Positions 2 to 30,671 of a stretch of 64,000 bases of DNA are shown piece by piece. Origin of the DNA: Gammaproteobacteria bacterium (GTDB taxonomy: Bacteria; Pseudomonadota; Gammaproteobacteria; Ga0077536); contig JBFXAQ010000011.1 in the NCBI GenBank assembly GCA_050184115.1, forward strand, positions 88,692-152,691. Reading direction: 5' to 3'. Within the stretch, counting starts at the first letter, position 1. Every line of letters begins with the position of its first letter. Both the position numbers and the translations under genes were made by a program. The notes beneath the pieces are model-generated. The model saw only the letters and a list, made by a program, of their open reading frames with translations, searched no databases and was not told where the DNA came from.

Positions 2-3000
2 CATGGACCAGTCACCGATCAATTCATAGATGGTCTGCATCGAGCGCGGCCGCTCGGCCTGCGCCGCCACGCTCGGCACGTGCAGGGCTTTACGCGTCTG
101 CAGCACAAGCGAGGTCGCGGTATCGACGAGCGGGATGGGATAAACGGCCTCCGCCGCCGCTATCACCTCGGTCGGGCCTCGGATTGCGCCCACGCTGACT
201 TGTTCGCGCTCGTCGACCAGGAAGATGATTTGAGATTCGGCCTCGACCAACTGCTCACTGCGGTCGAGGATGGTCTCGAACACCGGCGCGGTGTCTTCGA
301 CCGAGCCGCCGATGACGCGCAGGATGTCGGCCATCGCCGTCTGTTGCTCCAGCGCTTCGTGGGTCTCGCGGAACAGCTGCGCGTTCTGGATGGCGATCAC
401 GGCCTGGTCGGCGAAAGTCGACATCAGGTCGATCTCGCGCTTCGAGAACGGCCGCGAGGTGCCGCGAGCGGCGCCGATCGAACCCACCACCCGGCCGCGC
501 AGGACGAGCGGCGCGATGACCGCGGCGTAATCGCCGAACTGCTCGGCGATCCGTTTCATCGTCGGCACCCCCTCGGCGTTCATCACGCTCGGCACGCAGA
601 GCGTCTCGCCGTCCTTGGCAACGAGTGCCGTCACCGAGTCCTCGAAACGCACCGGGTAGGTCTGCTCGGCGGCCGCGACCATGGCGGCCGGCGCGCGAAT
701 CGCGGCCAGTTGCACCAGGCCGCGCTCGTCAACGAGGCTGATCATCTGGGTTTCGGCTTCGATGAGCTTCTGGCAGCGCTCGATGATGGTCTCGAACACC
801 GGCGCGGTGTCTTCGACCGAGTTGCCGATCACGCGCAGGATGTCGGCCGTGGCGGTCTGCTGTTCGAGCGCCTCCTCGGTCTGTTTGAACAGCCGCACGC
901 TGGCGATCGCGATCGCCGCCTGGTCGCCGAAGGTGCGCAGCAGGGCCAGCTCGCGTTCGCCGAATGGCCGCAGCTCCTGGCGGCGCAGCAGCAGCGCACC
1001 GAACGCACGCCCTTCGCGCATCAAGGGCGCGGCCACGGTGCTGCGGTGGCCGAGCTGGCGGGCGATCTCGCTGCTGCGCGCGTACTCGGCGGTCTCGGCC
1101 TGCATGTCGTCGACCGCGATGGTGCGCCGGTCGAGGATCGCGCGGCCAGTCATGGAGCCGCGGTCGATGGGGAAGGGCGAGACGGAGCCGGCCTGGTCGG
1201 CGCGCGGGCCACGCGAGGCAACGTGCTGCAGCAAGTCGTCCTCGGCGAGGAAGATCGAGGCCGAGGACGCGTCGCACAGGCGTGCGGCGTGTTCGGCGAT
1301 GGCGCCGAGGATAGGTTCGACGTCACTCGGCGACTCGGTGGTCACGCGCAGGATGTCGCTGATGGCGGTCTGGCGGTCGAGCGCGTCGCGGGTTTCGTTG
1401 AACAGGCGCACGTTGTCGATGGCGATGACGGCCTGGGCGGCGAAGGTTTCGAGCAGCTGGACGAGGTTGTCGGGGTACTCGCTGGCTTCGCTGCGCGAGA
1501 CGAAGATGGCGCCGATGACCTCTTTGCCCGAGATCATCGGCGCGGCGAGGCCGCTGCGCAGGCCGGTGGCGAGGTAGGAATCCTTCAACGCCGCGGTGAA
1601 CTCGGCATCGTCGAGGACGTCGCGGATCTGCACGGGCTTCTGCGCGAGCATGGCGCGCGTGCTCAAGGAGGTGCGGCGGTCCATGGCCATCGGGAACAGC
1701 GCCTCGATCTGGGCCACGGTGTCCTGGCTCGCGCCGTCGACCCCCACCAGGCGCACCTGGTCGCCGTCCAGCCGCGTCACCATGCACAGGCTGGCCCGGG
1801 CCAACGCGCGGCCGCGCTCGGCGATGGCCTGGAACACCGGGGCGACGTCAGTCGGCGAGTTGCTGATGACGCCGAGCACCTCGGCGGTGGCGGTCTGACG
1901 TTCGAGCGCTTCCTGCGTTTCCGTGAACAGGCGGGTGTTCTCGAGCGCGATCACCGCCTGGTCGGCGAAAGTCTGCAGCAGGCGTACCTGGGCATCCGGG
2001 AATGGCCCGGTTTCGCGGCGCATCAGCGCGATGGTGCCGACGGCCTCGCCGCCTCGCAGGAGCGGCACGGACAGGGCGCTGTTCATGTCCGAGGAGAATC
2101 CGATGGCGTAGTCCGGGTCCGCCTTGAGATCGGGGATCTGGACGGGCGCGCGTGCGAGTACCGCGCGCCCCTGCACGGTCGCGTTGGTCGGCGCACGCGG
2201 ATAGGCCGCGGCCCCGGCGGCCACGTCGACTTCGTTCATGCCGCGGGTACAGGTGATGTGGAGCATCTCGCCGTCGAAGCGCGTGGCCGCGCCGTACTCC
2301 GCATCGCACAGCGCCATCGCGCGCGCGAGGATGGCCTCGAACACCGGCTGCACGTTGGTCGGTGAACTGCTGATGACTTCGAGCACCTCGGCCGTGGCCG
2401 TCTGCCGCTCCAGCGCCTCCTGCGTTTCCGTGAACAGGCGGGTGTTCTCGAGCGCGATCACGGCCTGGTCGGCAAAAGTCTGCAGCAGCGCAACTTCCTT
2501 GGCATCGAAGGGTCGCGGCGGACGGTGCGAGAGCCACAATGCGCCAAGCGCGTGGCCCTCGTGCAGCAATGGCGCGCACAGCATGGAATAGTTGCCGATG
2601 CGTTCCACGAGCCGACGGCTGTTTTCTGGCAGCCCGGATTCAGCCTGAGCGTCAGGGACGTAAATCACCCGCTTCTCGATCACCGCCCGCCCGGAAATGA
2701 ACGAATCGAGCGGAACGGCTTCGTCCGGCAAGCCCTCTGCCGGGGTATCCGCCTGTATGCGCCGCGCGACGAAACGCCCCAGGCCGTTGCCTTCGGCGAG
2801 CAGGATGCCGTAGTTCGGCACCTTGAACAGCCGCTGGCAGCTCTCCAGGATGACCTCGAACACGGGCCCGGTTTCCTTGACCGAGCTGCTGATCACGCGC
2901 AGCACATCGGCGGTGGCCATCTGCCGTTCGAGGGCTTCCTGCGTCTCGTTGAACAACCGTGTGTTCTCGATGGCGATCACGGCCTGGTCGGCGAAGGTTT

Positions 3001-6000
3001 CGAGCAGCGCGATTTCTTTGTCGTCGAAGGGCCGTGGCGGGCGGTGCCACAGGCACAGCGCGCCGAGCGCGCGGCCCTCGTGCAGCAGGGGTGCGCACAG
3101 CAGGGAGTAATTGCCGAACTGCTCGAGCAGCCGCCGGGTGTTCTCCGGCGCATCGGTTTCGGCCTCAGCATCCGGCACGTACACCACGCGGCGCTCGAGT
3201 ACCGCCTGGCCGGAGACCAGTGAATCGAGGGGGACGGCCTCGGCCTCGAACGGCAGGGTTTTCAGTGCCGGGTCGGCGTCGGTGTCGAGCCGCGCGACGA
3301 AGCGGCCGAGGCCATCGCCTTCGGCGAGCAGGATGCCGTAGTTGGCCACCTTGAACAGGCGCTGGCAGCTGTCGAGGATGGCCTCGAACACGGGCTCGGT
3401 TTCCTTCACCGAGCTGCTGATGGTGCGCAGGACCTCGGCCGTCGCGGTCTGGCGTTCCAGCGCCTCCTGGGTCTCATTGAACAAGCGCGTGTTCTCGAGC
3501 GCGATGACTGCCTGGTCGGCAAAGGTTTCGAGCAGGCGCACCAGGTTGGGCGGGAACGCGCCGGCTTCGGCGCGGCCGACCGCGATCGTGCCGATGCAGC
3601 GTCCCTGGCGCAGCATGGGCACGGCGACCAGGCTGCGGTAACCGTCAAGAGTCGCGCGGGCGCTCAGCCCATATTCCGGATCGGTATCGACATCGGGGAT
3701 TTCGATCGTGCGGCCTTCGAGGATCGCGCGGCCCTGGCCGATGCCGCGCTCCGGCGCCACGCCCTGCCACTGGTCGAGCGGGTTGCTGTCGCGGAATCCG
3801 CGTGCCGCCGCGAGGTGCATGAGCCGGCCGTCGTAGCGCACGGCCATGCCGAAGTTCGCGCCGCAGAGGTTCATGGCGCGCTCGACGATGGCGTCGAACA
3901 CCGGCTGCACATCGGTCGGCGAGCTGCCGATGACCGCGAGCACCTCGGAGGTCGCCGTCTGGCGTTCGAGCGCGGCCTGGGTCTCGTTGAACAACCGCGT
4001 GTTCTCAATCGCGATCACCGCCTGGTCGGCGAAGGTTTCGAGCAGCTGCGCGTCCTTGTCGGTGAACGGCGTGCCGTCGTTGCGGCCGACGAAGATGGCG
4101 CCGACAATCTCGGTGCCGCGCCGCATCGGGGTCGCGATGGCCGTCGGCGACAAACCTGCGCGGCGTGCGGTGGCCTTGGCCTGCGGATCGAAGTCCGGGT
4201 CGTTCTGGTAGTCCGTGATATGGATGGTCGTGCCATCCACCATCGCGCGCGTACCCGCCACGCTGCGGTCGATCGGGCGCGGGAACATCGCCCGGTACGC
4301 ATCCTCGGCCTCCGGCACCGGCATGACGAAGGCCACGAGGTGGGCGAGGCCGTCGCGCGCGACCTCGACGCCGGCCCCGTCACCCCCGCAAAGCACCCGC
4401 GCGCGCTCGGCGATGGCGTCGAACACCGGCTGCACGTCGGTTGGCGACTGGCTGATTACGCGCAGGACGTCGGCGGTCGCGGTCTGGCGTTCGAGGGCCT
4501 CGGTGGTGTCGCGGAACAATTTCGCGTTCTGGATGGCAATCACGGCCTGGTCGGTGAAGGTCCGCAGCAAGTCGATTTCCTGGTCCGAGAACGGCCGGGC
4601 GGGGAAACGCCCGAGGAAGATCGAACCAATGCCTGCACCCTTCCACAGCAAGGGCGCGACCAGCAGCGAGAAATGCCCGTAGCGCTCGACGCTCTGGCGC
4701 TGGATGCCATCCAGCTGGGGCTCGCGGGCCGTGTCCGGAATGTGCACAACCCGGCGCTCCCGGATGCTCAAGCCGGTCACGGTGTCGTCCAGCGCGTGCT
4801 CGTCACTCACGCTGACATCGACGCCGCGCCGCGCGCTGAGATCGAGCGTGCCGTCGTCGCGCAATTGCGCGATGCCGACGACGTCGGCGCCGAACAGGGC
4901 CTCGCAGCTGTCGAGGATCTTCTCGAACACGGGTGCCGCGTCCTCGACCGAGCTGCTGATGACCTGTAGCACGCCAGCGGTCGCGGTCTGGCGTTCGAGT
5001 GCTTCCTGGGTCTCGCGGAACTGGCGCGCGTTCTGAATGGCGATCACGGCCTGGTCGGCGAAGGACTTGAGTAGCGCGATCTCCTGCTCGCTGAAGGCTT
5101 TCGACGGGCAACGCACCACCAGCAACACACCGCTGAACTGGCCATTGACCATCAACGGCGCGCGGACGATTGAGTAGGGGCCGATCGCCCGCGCCCATTC
5201 GCGCAAATCGGGGTCGGCGGATTCGCTGGTGACTTCCGGGTGCTGGACGGTCTCACCTTTCGCGATGGTCGCAAGATAGGGTGCGGAATCCACGCGCACG
5301 CTCGTGGGTACGTCGTCCAGATTCAGGGTGGTATAGGGTTGCCCAACGATTGCTGCGAGTGCCACCTGGTCGCCGTCTTTCACCATCCAGATTTGCGCAC
5401 CGTCGGCGCCGAAAAGCTGCAGGCAGCGCGCGACGATGGTGTCCATCACCGGTTGTGCATCCGTCACCGAGCGGCTGATGACCTGCAGAACCTCGGCGCT
5501 CGCGGTCTGCTGTTCCAACGCCTCCTGCGTCTCGTTGAACAGGCGCGTGTTCTCGATGGCGATGACGGCCTGGTCAGCGAACGTGGCGAAGAGCGCCTGC
5601 TCCTTGGCTGAAAACGGCCGCGGCGGCGTCGCATAGAGCCAGAGCACGCCGAGCCCACGGCCCTCGCGCAGCATCGGCGCGACCATCATCGAGTAATCGC
5701 CCACCAGCCGCTGGGCCTGCTTGAGCGACACAGGTACGTCGCTGCGGGCACTGACGTGCGGATAGATCACCGTGTGTCCCGCGTGGAAAGCCGCCGGCAG
5801 GTTGCTCTCGTCGATGGGAATGGGCGCGGAGAACAGTTGCTGAATGTCGTCGGAAGACGGCCCGCGCACCGCGACCAGCCGTGCCGTGAGGTGCTGGTCG
5901 TCGGTGACGCTGATGCCAACCTGATCGGTATGGAACAACCGTGCACAGCTCTCGACGATGGCCTCGAACACCGGCTGCGCGTCTTCGACCGAACCGCTGA

Positions 6001-7705
6001 TCACCCGCAGGACCTCGGCCGAAGCCGTCTGCTGCGCAAGCGCTTCCTGCGTCTCGCGGAACAGGCGCGCGTTCTGGATGGCGATCACGGCCTGGTCGGC
6101 GAAGCTCTTCAGCAACGCGATTTCCTTGTCCGTGAAAGGCTTCGGCGGGTAGCGCCCTACCAACAACACACCGCTGAACTGGCCATTGACCATCAGTGGC
6201 GTACGGAGGCCTGAAGCGGAGCCGGCCTTCCGCGCCCATTCGCGCATGGCCTCGCTGCCGATTTCGGCGGTGACTTCCAGGTCGTGGACCGTCTGGCCCT
6301 GCGCAATCAGCGCCAGCGCGGGATCGGAGTCCATGCTCACGCGGGTCGGCAAGTCATGCAGATCGAGCTTGGAGTAGGGCGCGCCACCCAGCGCAACCAG
6401 GGTCAACTGGTCGTTGCCCTCCAGCATCCAGATTTGCGCAGCGTCGGCGCCGAAGAGCTGCAGGCAACGCTCGACGATCGTGTCCATGACCGGTTGCGCG
6501 TCCGTCACCGATTGACTGATGACGGCGAGCACCTCGGCGCTCGCCGTCTGCTGCTCGAGCGCCTCCTGCGTCTCGTTGAACAGGCGCGTGTTCTCGATGG
6601 CGATCACGGCCTGCGCGGCGAAGGTCTCGAGCAGTTCGATCGCTTCGTCGGGCCACCGGCCACTGGTCTCGCGTCCGACATAGATACTGCCCAACGCTTG
6701 GCCAGCGCGCAGCATGGGGACGGCAATACCGCTAGCGGCGGAGAATCCGCGCGCAATCCCAGCGGCCTTCATGGCCGGATCGAGTTCGGGATCGCCGAAA
6801 TAATCGTCCACGCGGACCGGCGCGCACGTGAGAATGGCGCGCCCCGTGACGCTGCTGCGATCGACCGGGCGCGGGTACTGCGCCCACAGGTCGGCCCCCA
6901 TCTCCGCCGAAGGTCCCTGCATGGCCCTCATGTGTACCAGCGTGCCGTCGAAGTGGGTCACGACACCGAACGCCCCGCCGCACAAGACGCGCGCACGCTC
7001 GGCGATGGCGTCGAACACCGGCTGCAGGTCAGCGGGCGAGCGACTGATGACTTCCAGCACTTCGGCGGTCGCCGTCTGCCGCTCCAGTGCCTGGCGTGCC
7101 TGGTTGAACAGGCGCGCGTTCTCGATGGCGATGACGGCCTGGTCGGCGAAGATCAGCAGGGCGGCGACGAATTCGTCGGCGAAGTCTCCGGCCGAGGCCC
7201 GGCCGACGCTGATCGCGCCGACCACGCGCCCGGCGTGCCGGAGCGGCACACCCAATGCACTACGCGCGTCCTGGCTGCGTGCCAGCTCGCGGACCTCGGG
7301 CGGGTAGCCGGGGTCGTTCCAGAGGTCGGTGCTCTGCACCGGGGCGCACTGCAGCACCGCGCGGCCGACCATGCTGCCGTGGTCCGGAGCGTGCGGGAAC
7401 ACCGCGTACGCGTTTTCGGCGGCGCGGCCATACAGCGCAGCCTGGTGCAGCAGCTGGCCATCGAAATGCACGATGACCCCACTGTTGCCGTCCGCGAGCG
7501 TCACCGCGCGTTCGAGGATGGCCTCGAGCACGCGCTGGCTGTCACCCGGTGAGTCGCCGATGATGCGCAGCACCTCGGCCGTCGCCGCGTGGTGCTCGCC
7601 GGCGATGCGTGCCGCCGCCAGCTCCGCGTCTCGCTTCTCGAGTTCGGCCGTCCTGGCCGCAAGCTCCCGTTGCAGCGCCCGGAGCGCTTCGGCCGATGCT
7701 TTCAT
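2..7705 (-). CDS. Giant multi-GAF signalling protein (14 complete + 1 partial GAF domains; continues beyond the left edge, output domain not seen)
   Basis: Manual translation from ATG at 7705 (MKASAEALRALQRELAAR...) reads open to the edge (...IGDWSM, same frame). The unit 'F(A/T/G)(D/A)QAVIA(I/L)(E/Q)N(T/A)RLFxETxEALExQTA(T/S)A(E/D)VLxVIxxS' recurs every ~510-530 bp (near 7136, 6608, 6089, 5566, 5048, 4543, 4020, 3509, 2981, 2462, 1955, 1430, 918, 402). Probably missing from the ORF track because it has no stop in the window. Confidence 0.92.
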   Translation of the reverse strand, partial: MKASAEALRALQRELAARTAELEKRDAELAAARIAGEHHAATAEVLRIIGDSPGDSQRVLEAILERAVTLADGNSGVIVHFDGQLLHQAALYGRAAENAYAVFPHAPDHGSMVGRAVLQCAPVQSTDLWNDPGYPPEVRELARSQDARSALGVPLRHAGRVVGAISVGRASAGDFADEFVAALLIFADQAVIAIENARLFNQARQALERQTATAEVLEVISRSPADLQPVFDAIAERARVLCGGAFGVVTHFDGTLVHMRAMQGPSAEMGADLWAQYPRPVDRSSVTGRAILTCAPVRVDDYFGDPELDPAMKAAGIARGFSAASGIAVPMLRAGQALGSIYVGRETSGRWPDEAIELLETFAAQAVIAIENTRLFNETQEALEQQTASAEVLAVISQSVTDAQPVMDTIVERCLQLFGADAAQIWMLEGNDQLTLVALGGAPYSKLDLHDLPTRVSMDSDPALALIAQGQTVHDLEVTAEIGSEAMREWARKAGSASGLRTPLMVNGQFSGVLLVGRYPPKPFTDKEIALLKSFADQAVIAIQNARLFRETQEALAQQTASAEVLRVISGSVEDAQPVFEAIVESCARLFHTDQVGISVTDDQHLTARLVAVRGPSSDDIQQLFSAPIPIDESNLPAAFHAGHTVIYPHVSARSDVPVSLKQAQRLVGDYSMMVAPMLREGRGLGVLWLYATPPRPFSAKEQALFATFADQAVIAIENTRLFNETQEALEQQTASAEVLQVISRSVTDAQPVMDTIVARCLQLFGADGAQIWMVKDGDQVALAAIVGQPYTTLNLDDVPTSVRVDSAPYLATIAKGETVQHPEVTSESADPDLREWARAIGPYSIVRAPLMVNGQFSGVLLVVRCPSKAFSEQEIALLKSFADQAVIAIQNARQFRETQEALERQTATAGVLQVISSSVEDAAPVFEKILDSCEALFGADVVGIAQLRDDGTLDLSARRGVDVSVSDEHALDDTVTGLSIRERRVVHIPDTAREPQLDGIQRQSVERYGHFSLLVAPLLWKGAGIGSIFLGRFPARPFSDQEIDLLRTFTDQAVIAIQNAKLFRDTTEALERQTATADVLRVISQSPTDVQPVFDAIAERARVLCGGDGAGVEVARDGLAHLVAFVMPVPEAEDAYRAMFPRPIDRSVAGTRAMVDGTTIHITDYQNDPDFDPQAKATARRAGLSPTAIATPMRRGTEIVGAIFVGRNDGTPFTDKDAQLLETFADQAVIAIENTRLFNETQAALERQTATSEVLAVIGSSPTDVQPVFDAIVERAMNLCGANFGMAVRYDGRLMHLAAARGFRDSNPLDQWQGVAPERGIGQGRAILEGRTIEIPDVDTDPEYGLSARATLDGYRSLVAVPMLRQGRCIGTIAVGRAEAGAFPPNLVRLLETFADQAVIALENTRLFNETQEALERQTATAEVLRTISSSVKETEPVFEAILDSCQRLFKVANYGILLAEGDGLGRFVARLDTDADPALKTLPFEAEAVPLDSLVSGQAVLERRVVYVPDAEAETDAPENTRRLLEQFGNYSLLCAPLLHEGRALGALCLWHRPPRPFDDKEIALLETFADQAVIAIENTRLFNETQEALERQMATADVLRVISSSVKETGPVFEVILESCQRLFKVPNYGILLAEGNGLGRFVARRIQADTPAEGLPDEAVPLDSFISGRAVIEKRVIYVPDAQAESGLPENSRRLVERIGNYSMLCAPLLHEGHALGALWLSHRPPRPFDAKEVALLQTFADQAVIALENTRLFTETQEALERQTATAEVLEVISSSPTNVQPVFEAILARAMALCDAEYGAATRFDGEMLHITCTRGMNEVDVAAGAAAYPRAPTNATVQGRAVLARAPVQIPDLKADPDYAIGFSSDMNSALSVPLLRGGEAVGTIALMRRETGPFPDAQVRLLQTFADQAVIALENTRLFTETQEALERQTATAEVLGVISNSPTDVAPVFQAIAERGRALARASLCMVTRLDGDQVRLVGVDGASQDTVAQIEALFPMAMDRRTSLSTRAMLAQKPVQIRDVLDDAEFTAALKDSYLATGLRSGLAAPMISGKEVIGAIFVSRSEASEYPDNLVQLLETFAAQAVIAIDNVRLFNETRDALDRQTAISDILRVTTESPSDVEPILGAIAEHAARLCDASSASIFLAEDDLLQHVASRGPRADQAGSVSPFPIDRGSMTGRAILDRRTIAVDDMQAETAEYARSSEIARQLGHRSTVAAPLMREGRAFGALLLRRQELRPFGERELALLRTFGDQAAIAIASVRLFKQTEEALEQQTATADILRVIGNSVEDTAPVFETIIERCQKLIEAETQMISLVDERGLVQLAAIRAPAAMVAAAEQTYPVRFEDSVTALVAKDGETLCVPSVMNAEGVPTMKRIAEQFGDYAAVIAPLVLRGRVVGSIGAARGTSRPFSKREIDLMSTFADQAVIAIQNAQLFRETHEALEQQTAMADILRVIGGSVEDTAPVFETILDRSEQLVEAESQIIFLVDEREQVSVGAIRGPTEVIAAAEAVYPIPLVDTATSLVLQTRKALHVPSVAAQAERPRSMQTIYELIGDWSM

Positions 7706-7800
7706 CCTTTGCTGCCCCTCCCCAAAGGCGCGCGGGATTTGCGAGTGCCGCCAGTCTAATCGACCTGGGACCGGTTCAGGTTATGGCTAAAACCACACGA

Positions 7801-8124
7801 GGAATTCGGTGGGGAATTCGGTGACAGTTACTGTATTTCGGCCAGCATCGACCGACCCCACTGCGGGTGCTGCGCGGTAGGCCGACACCGCACCCTTGCC
7901 CTCACGCCCACGATGCGACGGTGCCGTCATTTATGCGGTTCCTGCCGCCGCCCCTCTATCCGGCATTTGGGGACAGTATATGTATGCGTTTATACAGTGA
8001 CTGTCACCGATTTATGGTCACCGATTTTTTTCGCGCTGACACCGTGGTTTTGTCTCTCCGCCGGCGCTGAAGCGGCCGTGGCGCTTATACAGTAACTGTC
8101 ACCTTTTTCGCCCTGTCCCCAAAT
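7801..8124. repeat. Cluster of palindromic REP-like elements (nested/interleaved inverted copies)
   Basis: AATTCGGTGACAGTTACTGTATTTC 7815-7839 (+); ATTTGGGGACAGTATATGTAT 7965-7985 (+); ATACAGTGACTGTCACCGATTT 7992-8013 (-); ATACAGTAACTGTCACC 8087-8103 (-); CTGTCCCCAAAT 8113-8124 (exact reverse complement of 7965-7976). Confidence 0.85.
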
Positions 8125-9200: not shown

Positions 9201-12200
9201 TCAGCATTCTTGAATTCGTTGCAACCGCGCCACCTGGTACGGCGCCTCCATCGCGGCGTAGCCGTCTATGGCGGCGTCGATGAGCGCCCGGCGGGCAGTG
9301 TCGTCGCCCTGGGCGGCGGCGAGTTCCGCCTGCCATTCGGCCAGGGCGGGTTCCAGGACACGGAGTTTCATGCTGGCAATCCATTGCCCGGCCGCGTGCA
9401 GTTCGCGTGCCGCTGCGTCGGCCGCGCTCGCGCCGTCGCGCCGGAGCATCGCGCGCGCGACGACGCTATGGGCGATCGCTTCGAAGTAGTGCCGGCAGGA
9501 GCGCTCGCAGTGGGCGATGACCTGGCGGGCGGTGTCGATGGCAGCGGTGTGGTCGCCGGATTCCATCAGAGCCTCGGCGAGGATGCTGCCGGACCATGCC
9601 GCGTGAACGTGTTCGACGTGATGAAGGTGGCGCTCGAAGGCATCGGCCGCGGCTGCTACCGCGCCGGCGAAGTCGCCGCTGACGAGAGCGGCATAACCAC
9701 GCATCAAGGCGACCAGGGCGACCGTGTTGGCCGGCTCACCTAGGTTGCGTGACCACGCTTCGAATGCCTGGGCGTTGGCACGCAGGGTTTCGGCATCGTG
9801 CGCAATGTGTGCACGCAACGAGTCCGTCAAAAGTGAATAAGCATCGAGCTCCGGCACCTGTTCGCGCTGCGCCTGCCGACGCAACTCCTCGAGCGCGGCC
9901 CTGGCGGCCGCCAGGCGGCCGCCCATGACGAGGAAACCGGCGCGCCACAACAACGCGAAGAGACGCGAGTGGAATACGTGCAGAAGGCCCGTGGCAAGTG
10001 CGGTCGATGGCGCCACCGCAAGTGCCGCATCGCAGGCATCGAGTGCCGCGTCCACCGCCTGCGTCCCAAACGAATCGATAAAGCCGCGAGCGACGTAGGC
10101 CTCGATGACGAGTTCGCGATCGTCTTGTTCGCGGGCGTAATGTTCGGCCGGCTCGAGCGCCGTACTCGCCGCGCGGACGTCGCCGATCGCGGACAACGCA
10201 TGTGCATAAGCCATCGACAGCACATGGCGGTTGCGCACGTCGCCAACGACCGTGGCAAAACGCTGGCCGTCGCATAGAAGGCCTGCAGTGCGCTCGGTGT
10301 CGATACGCAGGCGGTACGAGAATTGGAGCAGGTTCCTGCAGGCAGCGACTCCGAGCGTTGCGGCCTCCTCGTCGATCGGGCCCTCGCGCAGCAACTCGCG
10401 GACATGCTCCCAGTGCATGTGCGCCGCCGGCAGGTCCGTACGCCCGACCCAATCGGCAGCCCGCCAGTGCCACCGCGCCGCGAGCGGCCGCTCGCCGGCT
10501 GCCTGCCAGTGATGGGCGAGCTGTGCGGCCCGTTCGTCGAGCTTGTCGCCGGCCCGGGCCTCGATGGCTCGGGCGACCGCAGCATGCAGCGCGGCGCGCC
10601 GGCTCTGCAGCAGCGACTGGTAAGCCACCTCGTGGGTCAGCGGGTGCTTGAAGGCGTACTCGAACACCGGGTAGAGCGCACGCTCGTAGACGAAGTCACC
10701 GGCCTTGAGCCGTTCGAGCGCGGTGGCGTGCGTGCCGGTGTCGAGGTCGCTGACGGCTTCGAGCAGCGGCCCCGCGAACTCGCGGCCAATCACCGCCGCC
10801 GTCTGCAGCAGGCGCTTGGCCATCTCCGGCAGACGGTCGATACGCGCGGCGAGCACGGCGCGTACGCTGGTCGGCACCACGATGGCGTCGATCGCGCTGA
10901 CCAGGCGGTAGTGCCCCGGTTGGCCGACGAGGTCGCCTGACTCGACCAGCGCGTTGACCACTTCCTCGGTGTAGAACGGGTTGCCCGCCGTCCATTTCAC
11001 GATGCGTGGCACGAGTTCCCCGAGCGAGGCATCGGTCCCGAGCAGGTCACCGAGCAGCTCACCGAGGGCGTCCGCGCCGAGCGGCACCAGCGGCAGTTGC
11101 TGGTAATGCGCCTTGCCGGCGAAGGCCGCCTGGTACTCCGGCCGGAAGTTCAGCACCACCAGGCTCCGCCGCCCCGCCGCCGCCGCCACCAGCTGGTTGA
11201 CGAAGGCGTCGCTGCCGGGGTCGATCCAGTGCAGGTCGTCGATGAGGGTCACGGCGAGCTGACCACCGGCATCCTGGGCTTCGACCAGGCGATGCACCAG
11301 CTCGTAGAGCTGGCGCTGGCGAGCCTCGGCATCCATGCGCGGCGCCGGCTGCTGTGGGTCGGCCACGCCCATGAAATCGAGCAACACCGGCAGCGCGTCG
11401 TGCAGCCTGGCGTCGAGCAGCGCCAGGGTGCCGGCGATCTTCCGGCGCGCCTGCACGGCATCGTCGTCGGCGCGGACGTCGAAGTAGTTCCGGAACAACT
11501 CGAGCACCGGCAGGTAGGGGATGTTCCTGCCGTGCGCCGGGCAGTGCGCCTCGTAGACCGGCAGGCCGCGCCGCCGGCAGTCCTCGACGAACTCGTAGCA
11601 GAGCCGGCTCTTGCCGAGGCCCGCCTCGCCGACGATACCGACCACCTGGCCGTGCCCGCGCCCGGCGTTGGCGAGCGCGGTCTCGAGCACCTGCATCTCG
11701 GCCGCACGCCCGACGAAGCGCGACAGGCCGCGCGCCACTGACACATCCAGGCGGCTGCGCACCGTGCCCGGCGCCTCCAGCTCGAACAGCGCCACGGCCT
11801 CGGCCAGGCCCTTCAGGTTCGTCTCGCCCATCGCGCGCAGGCGGAAATAACCGTGCACCAGGCGCTCGGTCGCACCGCCCAGGTACACGCAGCCCGGCGC
11901 CGCCAGTTGCTCGATGCGCTGCGCGATACCCACCGTCGCGCCCTGCGCGGTGTAGTCCATGCGCAGGTCGTCGCCGATTTTGCCGACTACCACCTCGCCC
12001 GAGTTCAGGCCCAGGCGGAAGCTGAAGTTGAGCCCGTCGGTCAGGCGCAGCTCGTCGGCATAGGTCCGCAAGGCGTCACGCGCGGCGAGCGCGGCGTAAC
12101 ACGCCCGCTGGGCGTGGTCTTCGTGGGCCAGCGGCGCACCGAACAGGGCCATGATGCCGTCGCCGGTGTACTGGTTCACGGTGCCTTCGTAGCGGTGCAC

Positions 12201-12584
12201 GGCCTCGGTCAGGATGGCGAAGTAGCGTTCCAACAGCCGGTGCCAGTGCTCGGGATCCAACTGCTGGGCGAGCTGCATCGAGCCCTGGATGTCGCAGAAC
12301 AGCACCGTCACCTGCTTGCGCTCGCCTTCCAGCGCCGTCTTCGACTGCAGGATCTTCTCGGCCAGGTGCTTCGGCGTGTAGTCGCGCGGCAGGCGTGGCG
12401 CGGCTGAACCGGCCGGCTGCGCTGCTTCGGCGGCTTGCAACGGCGTGCCGCAAGCGCCGCAGAAGTGGTGATCGGGCGGATTCGAGCGAGCGCAGGACGG
12501 GCAGGTGCGTTCGAGGGCCGTGCCGCAGCCGCCGCAGAAGGCGTTCTCCGGCGGGTTATCGCGGCCGCAACGTGCGCAGTTCAT
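9201..12584 (-). CDS. Double zinc ribbon - class III nucleotide cyclase - STAND AAA ATPase - TPR-like protein (paralog A)
   Basis: CxxC/FCxxCG twice at the N-terminus; cyclase motifs VLFCDIQGS and YTGDGIMALFG; Walker A GEAGLGKS; Walker B LIDDLHWID; YAFKHPLTHEVAY; Ala/Leu-rich helical C-terminus; 1127 aa. Confidence 0.93.
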   Translation of the reverse strand: MNCARCGRDNPPENAFCGGCGTALERTCPSCARSNPPDHHFCGACGTPLQAAEAAQPAGSAAPRLPRDYTPKHLAEKILQSKTALEGERKQVTVLFCDIQGSMQLAQQLDPEHWHRLLERYFAILTEAVHRYEGTVNQYTGDGIMALFGAPLAHEDHAQRACYAALAARDALRTYADELRLTDGLNFSFRLGLNSGEVVVGKIGDDLRMDYTAQGATVGIAQRIEQLAAPGCVYLGGATERLVHGYFRLRAMGETNLKGLAEAVALFELEAPGTVRSRLDVSVARGLSRFVGRAAEMQVLETALANAGRGHGQVVGIVGEAGLGKSRLCYEFVEDCRRRGLPVYEAHCPAHGRNIPYLPVLELFRNYFDVRADDDAVQARRKIAGTLALLDARLHDALPVLLDFMGVADPQQPAPRMDAEARQRQLYELVHRLVEAQDAGGQLAVTLIDDLHWIDPGSDAFVNQLVAAAAGRRSLVVLNFRPEYQAAFAGKAHYQQLPLVPLGADALGELLGDLLGTDASLGELVPRIVKWTAGNPFYTEEVVNALVESGDLVGQPGHYRLVSAIDAIVVPTSVRAVLAARIDRLPEMAKRLLQTAAVIGREFAGPLLEAVSDLDTGTHATALERLKAGDFVYERALYPVFEYAFKHPLTHEVAYQSLLQSRRAALHAAVARAIEARAGDKLDERAAQLAHHWQAAGERPLAARWHWRAADWVGRTDLPAAHMHWEHVRELLREGPIDEEAATLGVAACRNLLQFSYRLRIDTERTAGLLCDGQRFATVVGDVRNRHVLSMAYAHALSAIGDVRAASTALEPAEHYAREQDDRELVIEAYVARGFIDSFGTQAVDAALDACDAALAVAPSTALATGLLHVFHSRLFALLWRAGFLVMGGRLAAARAALEELRRQAQREQVPELDAYSLLTDSLRAHIAHDAETLRANAQAFEAWSRNLGEPANTVALVALMRGYAALVSGDFAGAVAAAADAFERHLHHVEHVHAAWSGSILAEALMESGDHTAAIDTARQVIAHCERSCRHYFEAIAHSVVARAMLRRDGASAADAAARELHAAGQWIASMKLRVLEPALAEWQAELAAAQGDDTARRALIDAAIDGYAAMEAPYQVARLQRIQEC

Positions 12585-12745
12585 GCTTCGATCGACCGTG
12601 CATAGGCTTCCCAGCCGGCCACGCCCATCGCGGCCAGCAGTTGGGGCAATTCGGCCAATTCGGTGACAGTTACTGTATTTTCGCGGACGGAAATACAGTA
12701 ACTGTCACCGAATTGGCGGCAGTGGCCGCAGCGTGTGCAGTTCAT
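12581..12745 (-). pseudogene. 54-aa vestigial cyclase-STAND paralog: paralog N-terminus + palindromic doublet + paralog C-terminus, in frame
   Basis: Translates MNCTRCGHCRQFGDSYCISVRENTVTVTELAELPQLLAAMGVAGWEAYARSIEA*. Start resembles paralog A (MNCARCG); end resembles paralog B (LLAAMGVTGWEAYARSIEA). ATGA overlaps with both neighbours. Confidence 0.7.
12654..12717. repeat. Inverted doublet of the palindromic element
   Basis: GCCAATTCGGTGACAGTTACTGTATTT-TCGCGGACGG-AAATACAGTAACTGTCACCGAATTGGC, perfect 27-bp arms. Confidence 0.93.
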
Positions 12746-15700
12746 GCTTCGATCGACCGCGCGTAGGCTTCCCAGCCGGTCACGCCCATCGCGGCCAGCA
12801 GTCGCCGTGCTTCGGCGAGATCCTGCGCCATGGCCTGCGGGTCACCGCGCAGCCGGGCGAGCCCGGCACGTTCCAGCAGGATGAACGGCAGCCACAGCTG
12901 GGCATCCGTGCGTCGAATGATTTCGAGCGCCTCCTCGATCTGCGCTTCGAGCTCGGCGGCGAGATCTGCTTCACCCAGCATGCGCAGCACGCGCGCGCGC
13001 TCGCGACCGTTCGTCATCAACGCGATGTCCAGGCCGTTGGCACGCGCCCGCTCGGTGCCGCGCTCGGCCAGTCGCAATGCTTCCGCAGGCTGGCCCAGGC
13101 CGGCTTTGCACACGGCCTGGTAGCCGTCCATGAGGATGTCCCACTCGCGGCCGGTGCCGCTATCGGCGATGAGCTGGCGTGCACGCGCGAAGAACTCGTC
13201 GGCCTCGATCCATCGTTCCGCGAGGTAGTTCGCCAGCCCGCGCCCGAGCAACGCGAACACCACGTTGTTGTTGGCGCCGAAGCGCTCGGCGATGCGCAAC
13301 GACTCGAGCGACGTGGTTTCGGCTTGCTGCGCATCTCCCAGGCCCCAATACAACCAGGCGCGATCGCTGAGGACATAGGAAGCATCCCAGTGTGAACCGA
13401 TGCGGCGTAGCAGCTCCGAAAGTCGCTTGAAGAACGCATCGAAGTGCGCGGGCGATCCGAGCTGAAAGGCAACGTTGCCACGCAGCGTGAGGGATTCCAG
13501 GTAGGGCCGGTGGCCGAGGATCTCGACGTGGATGGCGTCGTCACTCCCGCCGATCGCGAGAACCTCGTCCAGCACCGCGGCACAGTCGTGCAGGCGGACT
13601 TGCCAGAGCAGTCCGCGCGCAAGGGTATAGCGCGCATGGAGTTGGATCGCTTGGACGGCTTCGGCGTCGGCCAGGGTGATTGCGCGCTTCGCGTGGGATT
13701 CCACCGCTCGCCAGTCGGCCTGCCCGGTCATGAGCCAGGCGTAGGCGGCTTCGATCAAGGATTCGGCTGACCGATCTTCGGCCGACTGCGCCAGCGCGAT
13801 GGCGGTGTGGTAGAGCGCTTCGGACCGGGGCGCCTCGGTGCCGAGGCGATCGAGCGTCGACAGCAACTCGGGGTAGACCTCGAGCAAAAGGCGCGTGGCG
13901 TCCGCGTTGCCGGTGAGCGGCTCCACGAGCGCGCGCGCCTGGTTCCAATGCCGATAGGAGGCGGCGAGGTCGGTGCGCTGGACCCAGCGCGCGGCACGCA
14001 CGTGCCAGGTCGCGGCGACCAGGGACTCGCCGGCCTGTTCGTAGTGGTGCGCGAGGAGGCCAGCCTGTTCATCCGGCCGCGCCGCGACCGCAGCCGCGAT
14101 GGCCTGGGCGATCGCCGCATGGCGCGCGCGGCGGGCGGCTCCGAGTTGCGCATGTAGTGCCACTTCGTGGGTCAGGGGGTGCTTGAAGGCATATTCGGCG
14201 ACCGGGTAGAGGGCCCGTTCGTGCACGAGTTCCGCGGCGAGCAGGTTCGCGAGCGCGCCATCGAACGCGTCGCCGAGATCAGGCAGCACCGTCTCGAGCA
14301 GCGGCCGCGGGAACTCCCGCCCGATGACCGCGGCGGTATAGAGAACCTGCTTCTCGCGCTCGCCGAGGCGGTCGATGCGCGCCGCGAGCAGGGCCTGCAC
14401 GGTGGGCGGGACCTGCAACGATTCCAGCGCCGTGACCAGCTGGTAGGCGCCGCGCGTGCCCGCCAGCGCGCCGGTCTCGAGCAGGGACAACACGATCTCC
14501 TCGGCGAAGAAGGGATTGCCGCCGGATCGTGTGCCGATGAGCACCGGCAGATCGGCGACGGAGGCGTGCGAACCGACCCAGTCCTGCACTAGGGCCGTGA
14601 GTTCGTCCGGCCCGAGCGGCGCCATCGGTAATTGCAGCACCCACGACTTGCGCAGCCAATCGGCCGTGTACTCCGGGCGGAAATTGACCAGCAGCAGGGT
14701 GCGCGTGGTGCTGACCGCCTCAACGATTTGGGTAACGAATTGATCGCTGCCCGGATCGATCCAGTGCAGGTCGTCGATCAGGAGTACCAACGGTGTCGAC
14801 TGCGAGCGCAGGTGGACCAGGCGGCGCAGGAAGGTGAACAAACGCTGCTGACGCACCGCGGGTTCGAGCTGCAACGAAGGTGTGTTCGGATCGGCGACGC
14901 CGAGGAAATCGAGCACGAGCGCGCGATCGTCGGCGAAGTCGTCGTCGAGCAGGGCGAGCTCGCCGGCGATCTTCTGCCGCGCCTCGCGCAGGCCGTCCTG
15001 CTCGGTGATGCCGAACAGGTTGCGCAGGAGCTCGAGCAGCGGCAGGTAGGGGATGGTCTTGCCGTGCGCCGGGCAATGCGCCTCGTAGACCGTGAGCCCC
15101 TGACCGCGGCAGCGCTCGACGAACTCGGCGCACAGGCGGCTCTTGCCGACGCCGGCCTCGCCGACCACCGCGGCCACCCGACCGGTACCGTCGAGGGCGC
15201 GTTGCAGTGCGACGTCCAACGCTTCCATCTCCTCGTCGCGTCCGACGAAGCGCGACAGGCCGCGTGCGCGCGAGGTGTCCAGGCGCGAGCGGTAGCGACC
15301 GGGCGCTTCCAGCACGTGCACGCCGACGGGCGCATCGAGGCCCTTGATCGGCACCGCGCCGAGCGCGCGCAGCGCGAAGTAGCCGTCCACCGCACGGCGT
15401 GTGTGCTCGGACAGGGCGATGCCATCGGCGGGCGCGAGCTGCTCCATGCGTTGGGCCAGCCCGACGGTCTGGCCCTGCGCGGTGTAGTCCATGCGCAGGT
15501 TGTCGCCGATGCGCCCGACCACCACTTCACCCGAGTTCATGCCGAGGCGGAAGGAGAAGTTGACGCCCGGCGATATGCGCAGCTCGTCCGCGTATTCACC
15601 AAGCCGTTCGCGCAGGTGGAGCGCCGCGTAGCAGGCACGCTGGGCGTGGTCCTCGTGCGCGATGGGCGCGCCGAACAAGGCCATGATGCCGTCGCCGGTG

Positions 15701-16110
15701 TACTGGTTGACCGTGCCCTCGAAGCGGTGCACACCCTCGGCGAGGATGGCGAAGAAGCGGTCGAGGATCCCGTGCCAGGTCTCGGGATCGAGCTGGCCGG
15801 CGAGTTCCATCGAACCCTTGACGTCGGCGAACAGCACCGTGACCTGCTTGCGCTCGCCTTCGAGCGCGGACCTGGTCTGCAGGATCTTCTCGGCGAGATG
15901 CGGCGGGGTGTAGTCGCGCGGGACGCGGGCGGGGACGGCAGGCGCTTGCGGTGGCGCTGCCGTCACCGGGGTGCCGCAGCTCGCGCAGAAGCGCGCGGCG
16001 GGTGGCAGCTCGGTATTGCAGTTCGTGCAGTGCGCGGCGCAGGCGGTGCCGCAGTTCGGGCAGAAGCGGGCGCCGCCCGGCAGTGGATGATGGCAGGCCG
16101 CGCAATTCAT
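12742..16110 (-). CDS. Double zinc ribbon - class III nucleotide cyclase - STAND AAA ATPase - TPR-like protein (paralog B)
   Basis: Same architecture as A: VLFADVKGS, YTGDGIMALFG, GEAGVGKS, LIDDLHWID, YAFKHPLTHEVA; 1122 aa. Confidence 0.93.
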   Translation of the reverse strand: MNCAACHHPLPGGARFCPNCGTACAAHCTNCNTELPPAARFCASCGTPVTAAPPQAPAVPARVPRDYTPPHLAEKILQTRSALEGERKQVTVLFADVKGSMELAGQLDPETWHGILDRFFAILAEGVHRFEGTVNQYTGDGIMALFGAPIAHEDHAQRACYAALHLRERLGEYADELRISPGVNFSFRLGMNSGEVVVGRIGDNLRMDYTAQGQTVGLAQRMEQLAPADGIALSEHTRRAVDGYFALRALGAVPIKGLDAPVGVHVLEAPGRYRSRLDTSRARGLSRFVGRDEEMEALDVALQRALDGTGRVAAVVGEAGVGKSRLCAEFVERCRGQGLTVYEAHCPAHGKTIPYLPLLELLRNLFGITEQDGLREARQKIAGELALLDDDFADDRALVLDFLGVADPNTPSLQLEPAVRQQRLFTFLRRLVHLRSQSTPLVLLIDDLHWIDPGSDQFVTQIVEAVSTTRTLLLVNFRPEYTADWLRKSWVLQLPMAPLGPDELTALVQDWVGSHASVADLPVLIGTRSGGNPFFAEEIVLSLLETGALAGTRGAYQLVTALESLQVPPTVQALLAARIDRLGEREKQVLYTAAVIGREFPRPLLETVLPDLGDAFDGALANLLAAELVHERALYPVAEYAFKHPLTHEVALHAQLGAARRARHAAIAQAIAAAVAARPDEQAGLLAHHYEQAGESLVAATWHVRAARWVQRTDLAASYRHWNQARALVEPLTGNADATRLLLEVYPELLSTLDRLGTEAPRSEALYHTAIALAQSAEDRSAESLIEAAYAWLMTGQADWRAVESHAKRAITLADAEAVQAIQLHARYTLARGLLWQVRLHDCAAVLDEVLAIGGSDDAIHVEILGHRPYLESLTLRGNVAFQLGSPAHFDAFFKRLSELLRRIGSHWDASYVLSDRAWLYWGLGDAQQAETTSLESLRIAERFGANNNVVFALLGRGLANYLAERWIEADEFFARARQLIADSGTGREWDILMDGYQAVCKAGLGQPAEALRLAERGTERARANGLDIALMTNGRERARVLRMLGEADLAAELEAQIEEALEIIRRTDAQLWLPFILLERAGLARLRGDPQAMAQDLAEARRLLAAMGVTGWEAYARSIEA

Positions 16111-23757: not shown

Positions 23758-23876
23758 TAAATCGGTGACATAAATCGGTGACAGTCACTGAATTTTGCGA
23801 GGTACCGCCGCGGGAGCCCCGGGCAGCCGATGACGACCGCTGCGCTTAGAGAAATACAGTTACCGTCACCAGATTT
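23758..23876. repeat. Inverted doublet of the palindromic element with a tandem partial duplication of the outer end
   Basis: TAAATCGGTGACA-TAAATCGGTGACAGTCACTGAATTT (23758-23795) ... AAATACAGTTACCGTCACCAGATTT (23852-23876). Confidence 0.85.
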
Positions 23877-25199: not shown

Positions 25200-25327
25200 T
25201 TCGGTGACAGTTACTGTATTTCCCGGTGCACGCCACGGGCTAATTCGGTGACAGTTACTGTATTTCGGAGTCAGCGCGAAAGGTGGCGGATTTCATCGGG
25301 AAATACAGTAACTGTCACCGAATTAGC
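25199..25327. repeat. Triplet of the palindromic element (+,+,-) between convergent genes
   Basis: ATTCGGTGACAGTTACTGTATTTC 25199-25222; GCTAATTCGGTGACAGTTACTGTATTTC 25239-25266; GAAATACAGTAACTGTCACCGAATTAGC 25300-25327. Confidence 0.93.
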
Positions 25328-28674: not shown

Positions 28675-28681
28675 CCCGTCA

Positions 28682-30664: not shown

Positions 30665-30671
30665 CACGCTC

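Follow-up and report, generated by a model that had tools for sequence, protein, structure and literature searches.

A mobile palindrome and a duplicated gene junction probably account for a 54-codon bridge ORF between two cyclase-STAND paralogs

Results

In a 64,000-nucleotide stretch of a gammaproteobacterial genome (contig JBFXAQ010000011.1; the whole stretch is called the window and the genome G000), two adjacent genes for cyclase-STAND paralogs are bridged by a short open reading frame that consists of parts of two copies of the gene junction and, between them, a palindrome. It is likely that this arrangement is specific to the lineage of G000, having arisen by junction duplication and palindrome insertion after the split from the related genome G004, with the palindrome a mobile element and the mini-ORF an accidental product.

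Every gene at the junction locus lies on the minus strand. Gene B (12742-16110) encodes an 1122-aa protein that, from the ORF list and Pfam (DZR, Guanylate_cyc, AAA_16, TPR), consists of a zinc ribbon, a class III cyclase, an AAA_16 (STAND-type) ATPase region and TPRs, and its last residues before the stop are ...LLAAMGVTGWEAYARSIEA, with SIEA at the C terminus. The TGA of gene B overlaps an ATG (ATGA, 12742-12745) that starts the bridge mini-ORF (12581-12745), whose translation, MNCTRCGHCRQFGDSYCISVRENTVTVTELAELPQLLAAMGVAGWEAYARSIEA, matches no Pfam family. The TGA of the mini-ORF overlaps in turn, in a second ATGA (12581-12584), the ATG of gene A (9201-12584), a paralog of B whose 1127-aa product (ORF list and Pfam) has the N terminus MNCARCGRDNPPENAFCGGCG. 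Each link is a -4 nt overlap and the 54 codons between them contain no stop, as a first-pass annotation of this DNA had described.

The junction itself is present twice. Copy 1 (12724-12802) contains the genuine 3′ end of B (59 nt), the ATGA and a 20-22-nt A-type start stub, which is the start of the mini-ORF; copy 2 (12563-12641) contains a second B 3′ end, which is the mini-ORF tail, followed by ATGA and the genuine start of A. When the window was compared with itself by blastn, the two copies aligned over 79 nt at 93.7% identity (E 2.5e-27), with a period of 161 nt. Position counts give 5 mismatches in these 79 nt and 6 in 81 nt (12563-12643), transitions throughout, so that the 81-nt direct repeat with six transitions reported at first pass is confirmed, as are the synonymous nature of three of the six differences (TAC/TAT, GCG/GCA, CGC/CGT) and the 80 nt that separate the copies. 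CGGC is found at either border of the duplicated unit, and ACTGC, the first 5 nt of that unit, can be read directly from the sequence immediately after copy 1 and again after the insert.

The insert (12644-12723; 80 nt) is not present in relatives; besides the palindrome, it contains one partial arm repeat (CCGAATTG) and a few flanking bases, and no stretch resembling the body of a cyclase gene was seen in it. The palindrome is a compact inverted doublet of 64 nt (12654-12717), a REPIN-like TIR dimer with 29-nt arms (12654-12682 and 12689-12717) and a 6-nt loop. Although the doublet is present as first described, it is not perfect, since its arms pair at 28 of 29 positions and the odd position is a G-T pair. 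The RNA fold of the region has a free energy of -85.5 kcal/mol (z = -6.9 versus shuffles), with the stem in both the MFE and the centroid structures, and of the three mRNA-strand frames only one runs open across the palindrome. Neither promoter-like nor terminator-like sites were found in 12300-13000. A LexA-type operator was considered and rejected, as the CTGT...ACAG spacing is wrong compared with the consensus.

Logan contigs from three runs bridge the whole structure (X1, 3344 nt, depth 84; X2, 3344 nt, depth 43; X3, 1405 nt, depth 4), with no differences over 12333-13000 and no alternative joint reported among them; the three runs belong to one study, possibly that of the source sample, and their contigs were assembled separately per run. 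As far as these contigs show, the assembly artefact raised as a concern at first pass is not indicated. A fourth run, X4, yielded a contig too short and shallow to interpret (151 nt, depth 2), which is 98% like 12734-12839 and diverges from the window after ATGAACTGCAC; for its 30-nt loose end, G000 has no counterpart even with 5 mismatches allowed. Runs X5-X11 contained only small shares of the sampled words, and one listed RNA run had only a 0.06 share.

Related genomes have the junction only once. A junction 22-mer, allowing up to 3 mismatches, matched 4 of 81 genomes of the family, with two copies in G000 only, and junction 21-mer scans returned the G004 contig alone among genome contigs, one contig among metagenome contigs and no closer relative. 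In G004, which is of the same genus, an 1122-aa B ortholog ending in SIEA is followed by ATGA and a full A ortholog of ~1126 aa, with one junction and no insert; positions 2177-2099 of its contig L002 align to both G000 junction copies, as expected of a single junction. B is 88% identical in nucleotides to its G004 ortholog (dS 0.32, dN 0.068), and A is 86% identical over 10448-12641. The metagenome contig L014 also has one junction and no insert, followed by an open zinc-ribbon start, MNCPACQHDNRPDRRFCTACG... (29 codons on the contig). Neither G015 nor G051 has a second junction. In G051, the ATGA of the B-like gene and a short stub are directly followed by a palindrome of a related family, and the downstream cyclase is absent; in G015, the downstream gene is likewise gone after a stub. 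Thus, a full-length gene at the position of the insert was found in none of the four relatives with a B-type junction (G004, L014, G015 and G051), of which two only keep the downstream gene at the junction and all are MAGs or metagenome assemblies.

These comparisons bear on the main claim of the first-pass annotation, that a full-length fourth cyclase-STAND gene had probably been deleted here, which relatives might reveal as a gene starting MNCTRCG and ending SIEA at this position. In G004 and L014, there is a single B-A junction with no gene between, the outcome that the annotation had itself named in advance as speaking against such a gene. Its argument that both junctions evolved as coding sequence also fails, since the three synonymous differences of six are uninformative and both clear nonsynonymous changes lie in the halves used by the mini-ORF only. 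When polarized by G004 and L014, those halves have 3 derived changes, of which 2 are nonsynonymous (Thr to Ala and Ala to Thr), and the functional halves have 1, a synonymous change in the real B end; 1 further site is ambiguous. Change in the mini-ORF-only halves, as shown by these polarized sites, appears relaxed, with no sign of constraint. The two G000 copies share states unlike those of G004, yet differ from one another at 5 sites. Such a pattern is expected of a duplication that postdates the G000/G004 split, and a rough estimate from 5/79 and the dS of 0.32 would place the event about one third of the way back to it.

The palindrome belongs to a repeat family. Its arm, AATTCGGTGACAGTTACTGTATTTC, contains no GTAG, has an internal symmetry of just 5 bp about 1 nt and forms no stable hairpin singly. 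A search of the window for the arm core, with as many as 3 mismatches allowed, gave 11 matches compared with 0 in 100 shuffles, which together with the z score of the fold excludes chance. The same search of all of G000 gave 34 matches, 23 of them on C11, the contig of the window, and two thirds within one 45-kb stretch, mostly as inverted pairs 47-100 nt apart and between genes. Elsewhere in the window are an arm cluster between a giant GAF histidine-kinase gene and an SDR gene (7820-8103), a more degenerate doublet with 2-3 mismatches per arm (23777-23870), three arms that occupy the gap between two convergent genes (25203-25319) and a doublet upstream of a 663-aa cyclase-TPR gene (30678-30750), the spacer of which has the 10-mer TTCCGTCCGC in common with the loop region of the junction doublet. 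The stop codons of paralogs C (25315-25317, in the three-arm group) and D fall within arms, placing elements of the family at extreme gene ends.

Related arms extend to several other species of the genus and to one other genus. With at most 2 mismatches allowed, a 22-nt arm pattern had 21 matches in G003, 4 in G005, 5 in G002, 1 (degenerate) in G004 and 56 in G012, and a reversed-pattern control had none in any of the five; G012 contains ~28 compact doublets resembling that at the junction. The doublet, taken at first pass for the scar of a deletion, is thus a member of a mobile repeat family. No donor copy with flanks identical to those of the insert appeared in our arm-flank listing, where the nearest was C11:75471 (...CTACCGCCAATTCGG versus ...ACTGCCGCCAATTCGG). 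A long flanking repeat was found at 1 of 40 element clusters, the junction, which scored 64; the others scored 6-12, not above noise, in a scan that is blind to repeats shorter than ~8 nt. The 5-nt flanking repeat was not seen at the other element copies inspected. At three other sites, filled in G000 and compared with syntenic G004 DNA, divergence between the intergenic sequences is too great for the borders of the insert to be located.

A candidate for the enzyme that moves the family is encoded on contig C13. A 222-aa ORF there contains a Pfam Y1_Tnp match (G000:C13:110384-110713; 50.2 bits, cut-off 23) of the IS200-like Y1 (HUH) type, and the gene lies between inverted arms at C13:109933 (+) and C13:110847 (-), with partial arm copies adjoining the ORF. 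Against the RAYT model NCBIfam NF047646 (REP_Tyr_transpos), the same protein scored 63.4 bits, under the cut-off of 80. The motif GGGGWSAS has been reported for some TIRs of TIRYT genes (PMC3733652), and GGTGACAG, carried by the arms of G000, fits it at 7 of 8 positions and GGGGACAG, carried by those of G012, at 8 of 8. The family best fits a kind spread by an IS200-like Y1 (HUH) transposase, possibly that of C13. Because its arms lack a GTAG head and do not fold into hairpins singly, and because inverted arms flank a Y1 transposase gene, the best-fitting description is REPIN-like and closest to the TIRYT/TIRtron class, a likeness drawn from the repeats, with the transposase itself compared by its 222-aa length and its sub-cut-off RAYT score.

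Integron attC sites were considered because doublets recur at regular intervals between single genes on C11, and were rejected, as the arms lack the attC core GTTRRRY/RYYYAAC. A REP unit has a GT(A/G)G head and is itself imperfectly palindromic (PMC2817692; PMC3733652), and a classical REP/REPIN with its RAYT fits only in its inverted, hairpin-forming doublet, as there is no GTAG/GTGG head, no one-arm hairpin and no transposase score above the RAYT cut-off.

Discussion

How might a palindrome have entered a junction in which two genes overlap? In the origin that we favor, a stretch of 79-81 bp over the B stop and the A start was duplicated in the G000 lineage, and the doublet came to sit between the copies. 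Insertion and duplication would have been linked, either in a single template-switch-like event or through a small tandem duplication at whose joint the palindrome then inserted. Because the junction would then be present twice, B could retain its own final 19 codons and stop, and A could retain its own start together with the sequence upstream of it; the remaining halves and the palindrome would by chance make one open frame of 54 codons with ATGA overlaps at both ends. Since there is no intergenic DNA at this site, we infer that only a version rebuilding both gene ends could survive. No intermediate allele was found among relatives. By our rough dating, the structure is old, and if it is neutral, such long persistence counts against this origin.

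The target-site duplications of IS elements and MITEs are usually 2-14 bp. As in those cases, a direct repeat flanks the insert, but the junction repeat of 79-81 bp is far longer and occurs at one of 40 sites. For Y1 (IS200/IS605-type) transposition, sizeable target duplications are not known, as far as the available text of PMC2817692 goes, and this, together with the single flanked site among 40, means that the duplication needs a second process. The alternative to a lost gene that the first-pass annotation had offered, insertion with a long target-site duplication, therefore holds in its first part, insertion with duplication being the better fit, and not as an ordinary target-site duplication.

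It is also possible, although rather unlikely, that two steps occurred without any extra gene: a tandem duplication of ~80 bp by slippage at short repeats (CGGC), which gave this junction its only dispensable DNA, then insertion of the palindrome into that DNA. Small tandem duplications are frequent mutations, elements of this family occur at extreme gene ends, as at the C and D stops, and the ACTGC restart after copy 1 and again after the insert looks as if the element lies 5 nt inside a second tandem unit. However, for an element to land within ~5 nt of the joint in an 80-nt permissible stretch is a coincidence of ~1 in 10, the predicted joint is one base off that observed, other inspected copies show no such 5-nt repeat, and the intermediate was not found.

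The lost gene of the first-pass annotation is improbable. Unequal recombination of tandem paralogs could have given B|X|A, in which X was a chimera that started like A and ended like B; later deletion of its body would have left the palindrome at the joint. This course would account for both junction copies with no need of a long target duplication. Recombination between paralogs does occur here, as A and C are 96.8% identical over 10441-12403 and 26537-28498 and not beyond, the 5′ end of C being B-like, and loss of the downstream gene adjoining such elements occurs in G051 and G015. Against it, none of the four relatives has a gene at this place, the insert shows nothing like a cyclase body, the mini-ORF-only halves look unconstrained, and at least three events would be needed: unequal crossover between genes now ~70% identical, insertion and a deletion with both of its endpoints at the element.

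It is very improbable that the duplicated junction and palindrome are ancestral and were lost in G004 and others by recombination between the 79-bp repeats, since, although such a deletion would give exactly the single junction of G004 and G004 is nearly devoid of the repeat family (one degenerate arm), the more distant L014, G015 and G051 are also single-junction and the G000 copies share non-G004 states while differing at 5 sites, or that the structure is an assembly error, given that the copies are 6% diverged and contigs of three runs bridge the region with no variants.

If the palindrome entered by duplication and insertion, is A still coupled to B? The -4 NTGA spacing is the commonest coupling arrangement and an efficient one, and coupling declines as spacing grows over tens to hundreds of nt (Brown and Wade, 2025; PMC12548453). 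The canonical ATGA is present at both ends of the mini-ORF and also at the ancestral B|A junction. Ribosomes ending B might reinitiate on the mini-ORF, unwind the hairpin, terminate at the second ATGA and then reinitiate on A. Our tentative proposal is that the mini-ORF relays translational coupling from B to A by this chain; otherwise, the hairpin would uncouple A or dampen it relative to B. A chain of two overlaps through an accidental 54-codon ORF with a 29-bp hairpin is not among the arrangements described in the available portion of PMC12548453 and is known here from sequence only. As one in three frames is open and one in three phases reaches its stop at the second ATGA, the open frame has a chance expectation of ~1 in 9 and is weak evidence for selection. 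A more speculative possibility, which we regard as doubtful, is that a selected, self-healing insertion took place, in which a Y1-type palindrome entered by a template switch during replication, leaving a copy of the junction to either side of it, and the mini-ORF relay keeps or retunes coupling and the B:A ratio. If true, selection for the relay would account for the survival of an 80-bp direct repeat around a hairpin over roughly one third of the time since the two species diverged.

The family resembles the TIRtrons, the TIRs of TIRYT genes (Di Nocera, De Gregorio and Rocco, 2013; PMC3733652), in that a Y1 gene is flanked by inverted motif copies, the arms are not GTAG-tagged REP hairpins and the motif also occurs without the gene, there as single, dimeric or grouped copies and here as 34 arm matches, mostly in inverted pairs. 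A dimer in a duplicated gene junction or within an ORF is particular to the present case and not reported in the parts of that source available to us. With REPINs and RAYTs (Bertels and Rainey, 2011, PMC3116915; Nunvar et al., 2010, PMC2817692), the family shares an inverted doublet forming a long hairpin, intergenic location, a cognate Y1 gene flanked by inverted repeats and vertical persistence. It differs in being low-copy (34 arm matches) and clustered, and the long flanking duplication at the junction has no counterpart in what those two accounts, as available, describe. Rickettsia palindromic elements (RPEs) and intragenic MITEs (PMC10969869) are likewise palindromic mobile elements read in frame. 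However, RPEs, as portrayed in the accessible text, sit in pre-existing functional genes and add a peptide segment, whereas the junction ORF would itself be a product of the event, with no protein function known for it.

These findings leave the biology of the cyclase-STAND proteins themselves as it was. Mini-ORFs may originate by accident in this way, and gene callers would then annotate such frames as genes; where a duplicated gene end lies beside a repeat, relatives should be checked before a lost paralog is called. If the relay is real, it would be a natural example of coupling through an ORF made by chance. Finally, to our knowledge, REPIN/TIR-type mobile palindromes are thought to persist only in spare intergenic DNA. 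At this junction, a palindrome probably lodged where no spare DNA existed, and an 80-bp duplication restored both gene ends, a small but clear case of a route by which such elements may enter tightly coupled operons.

A duplicated stop/start junction encloses a palindromic doublet

Genes A and B are cyclase-STAND paralogs that lie on the minus strand, as do all genes around their junction, in a 5.7-Mb genome (G000; about 68% G+C, 18 contigs; the window is G000:C11:88692-152691). Gene B (12742-16110, 1122 aa) encodes a double zinc ribbon, a class III nucleotide cyclase, an AAA_16 (STAND-type ATPase) domain and TPRs, and gene A (9201-12584, 1127 aa) is a paralog of B with an identical domain order. 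The C terminus of B is ...LLAAMGVTGWEAYARSIEA, and its TGA stop is overlapped by an ATG (ATGA) that opens a mini-ORF of 54 codons (12581-12745, minus strand), the TGA of which overlaps the ATG of A. A direct repeat, containing the final 59 nt of B through the first 20–22 nt past the ATG, is present as copy 1 at the real B end (12724-12802) and copy 2 at the real A start (12563-12641), with a period of 161 nt; the copies differ at 5 of 79 nt, or 6 of 81, by transitions throughout. Between the 81-nt copies are 80 nt that contain a palindrome, with 28 of 29 complementary positions between its arms (12654-12682 and 12689-12717, with a loop of 6 nt). The first-pass annotation had described this structure correctly, apart from calling the doublet perfect.

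Logan contigs from three sequencing runs speak against assembler error, as they span 12333-13000 without any difference or alternative joint (bridging-contig depth 84, 43 and 4 in runs X1, X2 and X3); the three runs belong to one study, possibly the source of the genome, and do not show that the structure occurs independently. Collapse or mis-joining is also made less likely by the 6% divergence between the copies.

Relatives carry a single junction

The first-pass annotation proposed that a full-length fourth cyclase-STAND gene had been deleted between B and A, leaving the doublet as a scar. We find no support for this reading: the doublet is a member of a repeat family, and relatives carry a single junction, which the proposal itself had named as evidence against it. 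Among 41 genomes searched with 12000-13400, both flanks were matched only in G004, another species of the same genus, where the two flank alignments overlap on one 79-nt stretch. There, the B ortholog (1122 aa, also ending ...LLAAMGVTGWEAYARSIEA) is followed by one ATGA and a full A ortholog (about 1126 aa, starting MNCAQCGRENPPENAFCGGCG), and the surrounding genes are syntenic with the window at 82–90% nucleotide identity. Scanning with junction 21-mers returned the G004 contig as the sole match among species-representative genomes and one metagenome contig (L014), which has a B-like end (...MGVTGWDDYARSIEA), an ATGA and a zinc-ribbon start that is open over the 29 codons present. At up to 3 mismatches, the junction is matched in 4 of 81 genomes of the family, with two copies in G000 only.

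The other two matching genomes, G015 and G051 of another genus, have a B-like end and an ATGA, then a short stub (MIC..., MNCA...) comprising at most about 15 nt of the downstream start, with no downstream cyclase after it; these B-like genes (G051:C24 around 22424, locus L055; G015:C17 around 9598, locus L054) end YARSIEA/YARSIET before the stop. A few bases past the G051 stub begins a palindrome from a related family (motif GGGGACAGTTTACGG, 26 matches in this genome versus 5 for the control). Because relatives carry a single junction, the tandem B/A junction with its −4 overlap is, on these comparisons, the older state, and only the G000 lineage has the duplicated form.

Breakpoints just within the downstream gene are found repeatedly, in several lineages. 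An unrelated metagenome (run X4) yielded a 151-nt contig, at a depth of only 2, that is 98% identical to the B end plus ATGAACTGCAC (window 12734-12839) and continues past ATGAACTGCAC into sequence without a match in G000; a third arrangement of the junction may exist in a close relative.

When G004 and L014 are used as references to polarize the repeat differences, the halves found only in the mini-ORF have three derived changes (ACC to GCC, TAC to TAT and GCA to ACA), two of them nonsynonymous, and the real B end has a single, synonymous change (GCA to GCG); one difference has no polarity (CGC/CGT versus CAG). Tiny as these numbers are, they point to constraint on the B end and the A start only and not on the mini-ORF, and they do not bear out the earlier claim of coding-sequence evolution at both junctions. 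The two copies share states unlike G004, and when their 5 differences in 79 sites are set against the dS of 0.32 between B and its G004 ortholog (dN 0.068, 1122 codons), the duplication would have roughly one third the age of the species split and hence not be recent.

The doublet belongs to a mobile repeat family

With up to 3 mismatches allowed, a 20-nt core of the arm is found 11 times in the window, versus not once in 100 shuffles, and 34 times across G000, with 23 of these inside about 45 kb of C11. Nearly all G000 arms are intergenic and form inverted pairs, 47–100 nt apart; along C11, doublets set apart, in order, genes for an FAD oxidase, a beta-lactamase-fold protein, a luciferase-like monooxygenase, cyclase-STAND paralog D and a giant GAF histidine kinase. 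Other species of the genus share the arms (22-nt pattern, up to 2 mismatches: G003, 21 matches; G005, 4; G002, 5; G004, 1), as does G012, from another genus, with 56 matches and about 28 compact doublets; a reversed-pattern control gave 0 in each of the five genomes.

On contig C13 of G000, a 222-aa ORF lies between inverted arms. Its score for Pfam Y1_Tnp (IS200-like HUH tyrosine transposase) is 50.2 bits (cut-off 23), and that for the NCBIfam model of classical REP-associated transposases is 63.4 bits, under the cut-off of 80. The arms have no GTAG head and do not form hairpins singly; they contain the motif GGTGACAG, with GGGGACAG as the counterpart in G012. In their account of TIRYTs (TIRtrons), Di Nocera et al. 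2013 (PMC3733652) describe RAYT-like genes with flanking TIRs in place of REPs, a GGGGWSAS motif common to some TIRs, and some TIRs that are also found as dimers and clusters. Since the TIR-type flanks, the dimers and clusters and the arm motif fit that description, we provisionally assign the junction element to the TIRYT class as a REPIN-like TIR doublet. TIR/REPIN-type doublets of Y1 transposases are a described kind, and palindromic elements lying in frame, as in the mini-ORF, are reported from Rickettsia (PMC10969869).

Partial tandem copies of the arm's outer 8–12 nt (AATTCGGTG, CACCGAATAT) adjoin many arms (window 7800-7830, 12640-12662 and 23760-23790; loci L029 and L043 of G003), with as many as three in a row in G003, and look like stutter at the element's outer cleavage end. 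On C100 and C303 of G002 (L016, L024), arms about 390 nt apart surround an apparently truncated Y1 transposase ORF (...HVTQRGNQRQTTFF...), perhaps a degraded version of the transposase unit. Another doublet family (GGGGACAGTTTACTT), whose arms are spaced by about 51 nt, has 28 matches in G004 and 26 in G000 (on C1, C2, C3, C5, C6, C7, C9 and C14); one of its doublets adjoins another Y1_Tnp gene (C5:264212-264544), and G000 has four Y1_Tnp genes altogether. The stop and last 2–3 codons of paralog C (...AALIR; window 25315-25317) and of paralog D (...LSNR; G000:C11:78874-78876, or L053 6875-6877) lie inside arms (AATTCGGTGA and AAATCGGTGA, respectively), so the element provides gene ends at other loci too.

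Origin of the duplication

IS200/IS605-type Y1 transposases are said to make no larger target duplications (PMC2817692). We scanned 40 element clusters with 160-nt flanks (22 in G000 and 18 at loci of G003, G005, G002, G004 and G012) for direct repeats. As a long flanking repeat was present at only one, the junction site (score 64 versus 6–12 elsewhere), the duplication is peculiar to this site and does not characterize the element.

We considered three routes and decide for none. One possibility is a single event that gave insert and duplication together: the nascent strand would quit the junction, copy a doublet elsewhere and then re-enter about 80 nt upstream. It is also possible that an 80-bp tandem duplication came first and doublet insertion second, in keeping with the unit's opening 5 nt, ACTGC, which restart after copy 1 and recur after the insert, and with CGGC at both unit borders. 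The third route, implied by the first-pass annotation, in which a chimeric third gene was made and later deleted, is not impossible, given that recombination among the paralogs does occur at this locus (A and C share a tract of only about 2 kb at 96.8% identity) and that a downstream gene was lost beside such elements in G051, but it requires more events than the other two and finds no backing in relatives. Since the junction has no spare DNA, survivors would be limited to forms that rebuild both gene ends and so keep B and A intact; selection of this kind explains the outcome under any of the three routes.

The tract shared by A and C (10441-12403 and 26537-28498) resembles the product of a recent gene conversion between paralogs; the first 180 nt and the last third of the two genes are unrelated at the nucleotide level, and the 5′ end of C is B-like. 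The 3′ (TPR) third of A does not align with the G004 ortholog, and dS is saturated. Paralog C and a 663-aa cyclase-TPR gene form a 5.7-kb block (25200-30868) with doublets of the junction element's family on either side. The syntenic site in G004 is without this block, its flanking genes being about 144 nt apart. With about 72–77% nucleotide identity to the 658-aa plus B module, the block is an old paralog of that module and not a recent copy. The giant histidine-kinase gene (window 2-7705 and upstream, L053 12176-16798) encodes numerous GAF domains in tandem, of which a scan of a 1540-aa part counted at least 8, and its DNA contains strong internal repeats with a period of about 520 nt.

Possible consequences for translation of A

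The doublet is predicted to form a 29-bp stem in the mRNA (−85.5 kcal/mol for a 176-nt region; z = −6.9 versus shuffles) that begins about 28 nt past the mini-ORF ATG and ends about 70 nt ahead of the ATG of A. The junction region has no terminator-like T-run and no promoter-like site, and reading by eye revealed no clear Shine-Dalgarno sequence upstream of the ATG of A (...CGATCGAAGCATG). A therefore probably relies on coupling to the upstream frame. The −4 overlap is described as the commonest coupling motif, with coupling efficient at −4 to +3 nt and declining with spacings of tens to hundreds of nucleotides (PMC12548453); behind 161 nt of untranslated spacer containing a strong hairpin, A should be translated less well.

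A narrow literature search found no such doublet flanked by the two copies of a duplicated stop/start junction, and no chance-made ORF joining two −4 overlaps. The observation is real and the element ordinary; it is the local arrangement that is unusual.

What might the mini-ORF do? The hairpin may simply lower translation of A or uncouple it, and perhaps in addition protect the B message. Alternatively, a translated bridge ORF, with an ATGA at either end, could hand ribosomes on from B to A. Of the three frames, a single one crosses the palindrome without meeting a stop, and a single phase terminates at the second ATGA, so an open bridge frame would arise by chance about 1 time in 9, which is weak evidence for selection. 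We regard it as possible, and somewhat doubtful, that the mini-ORF acts as a relay in the translational coupling of A to B.
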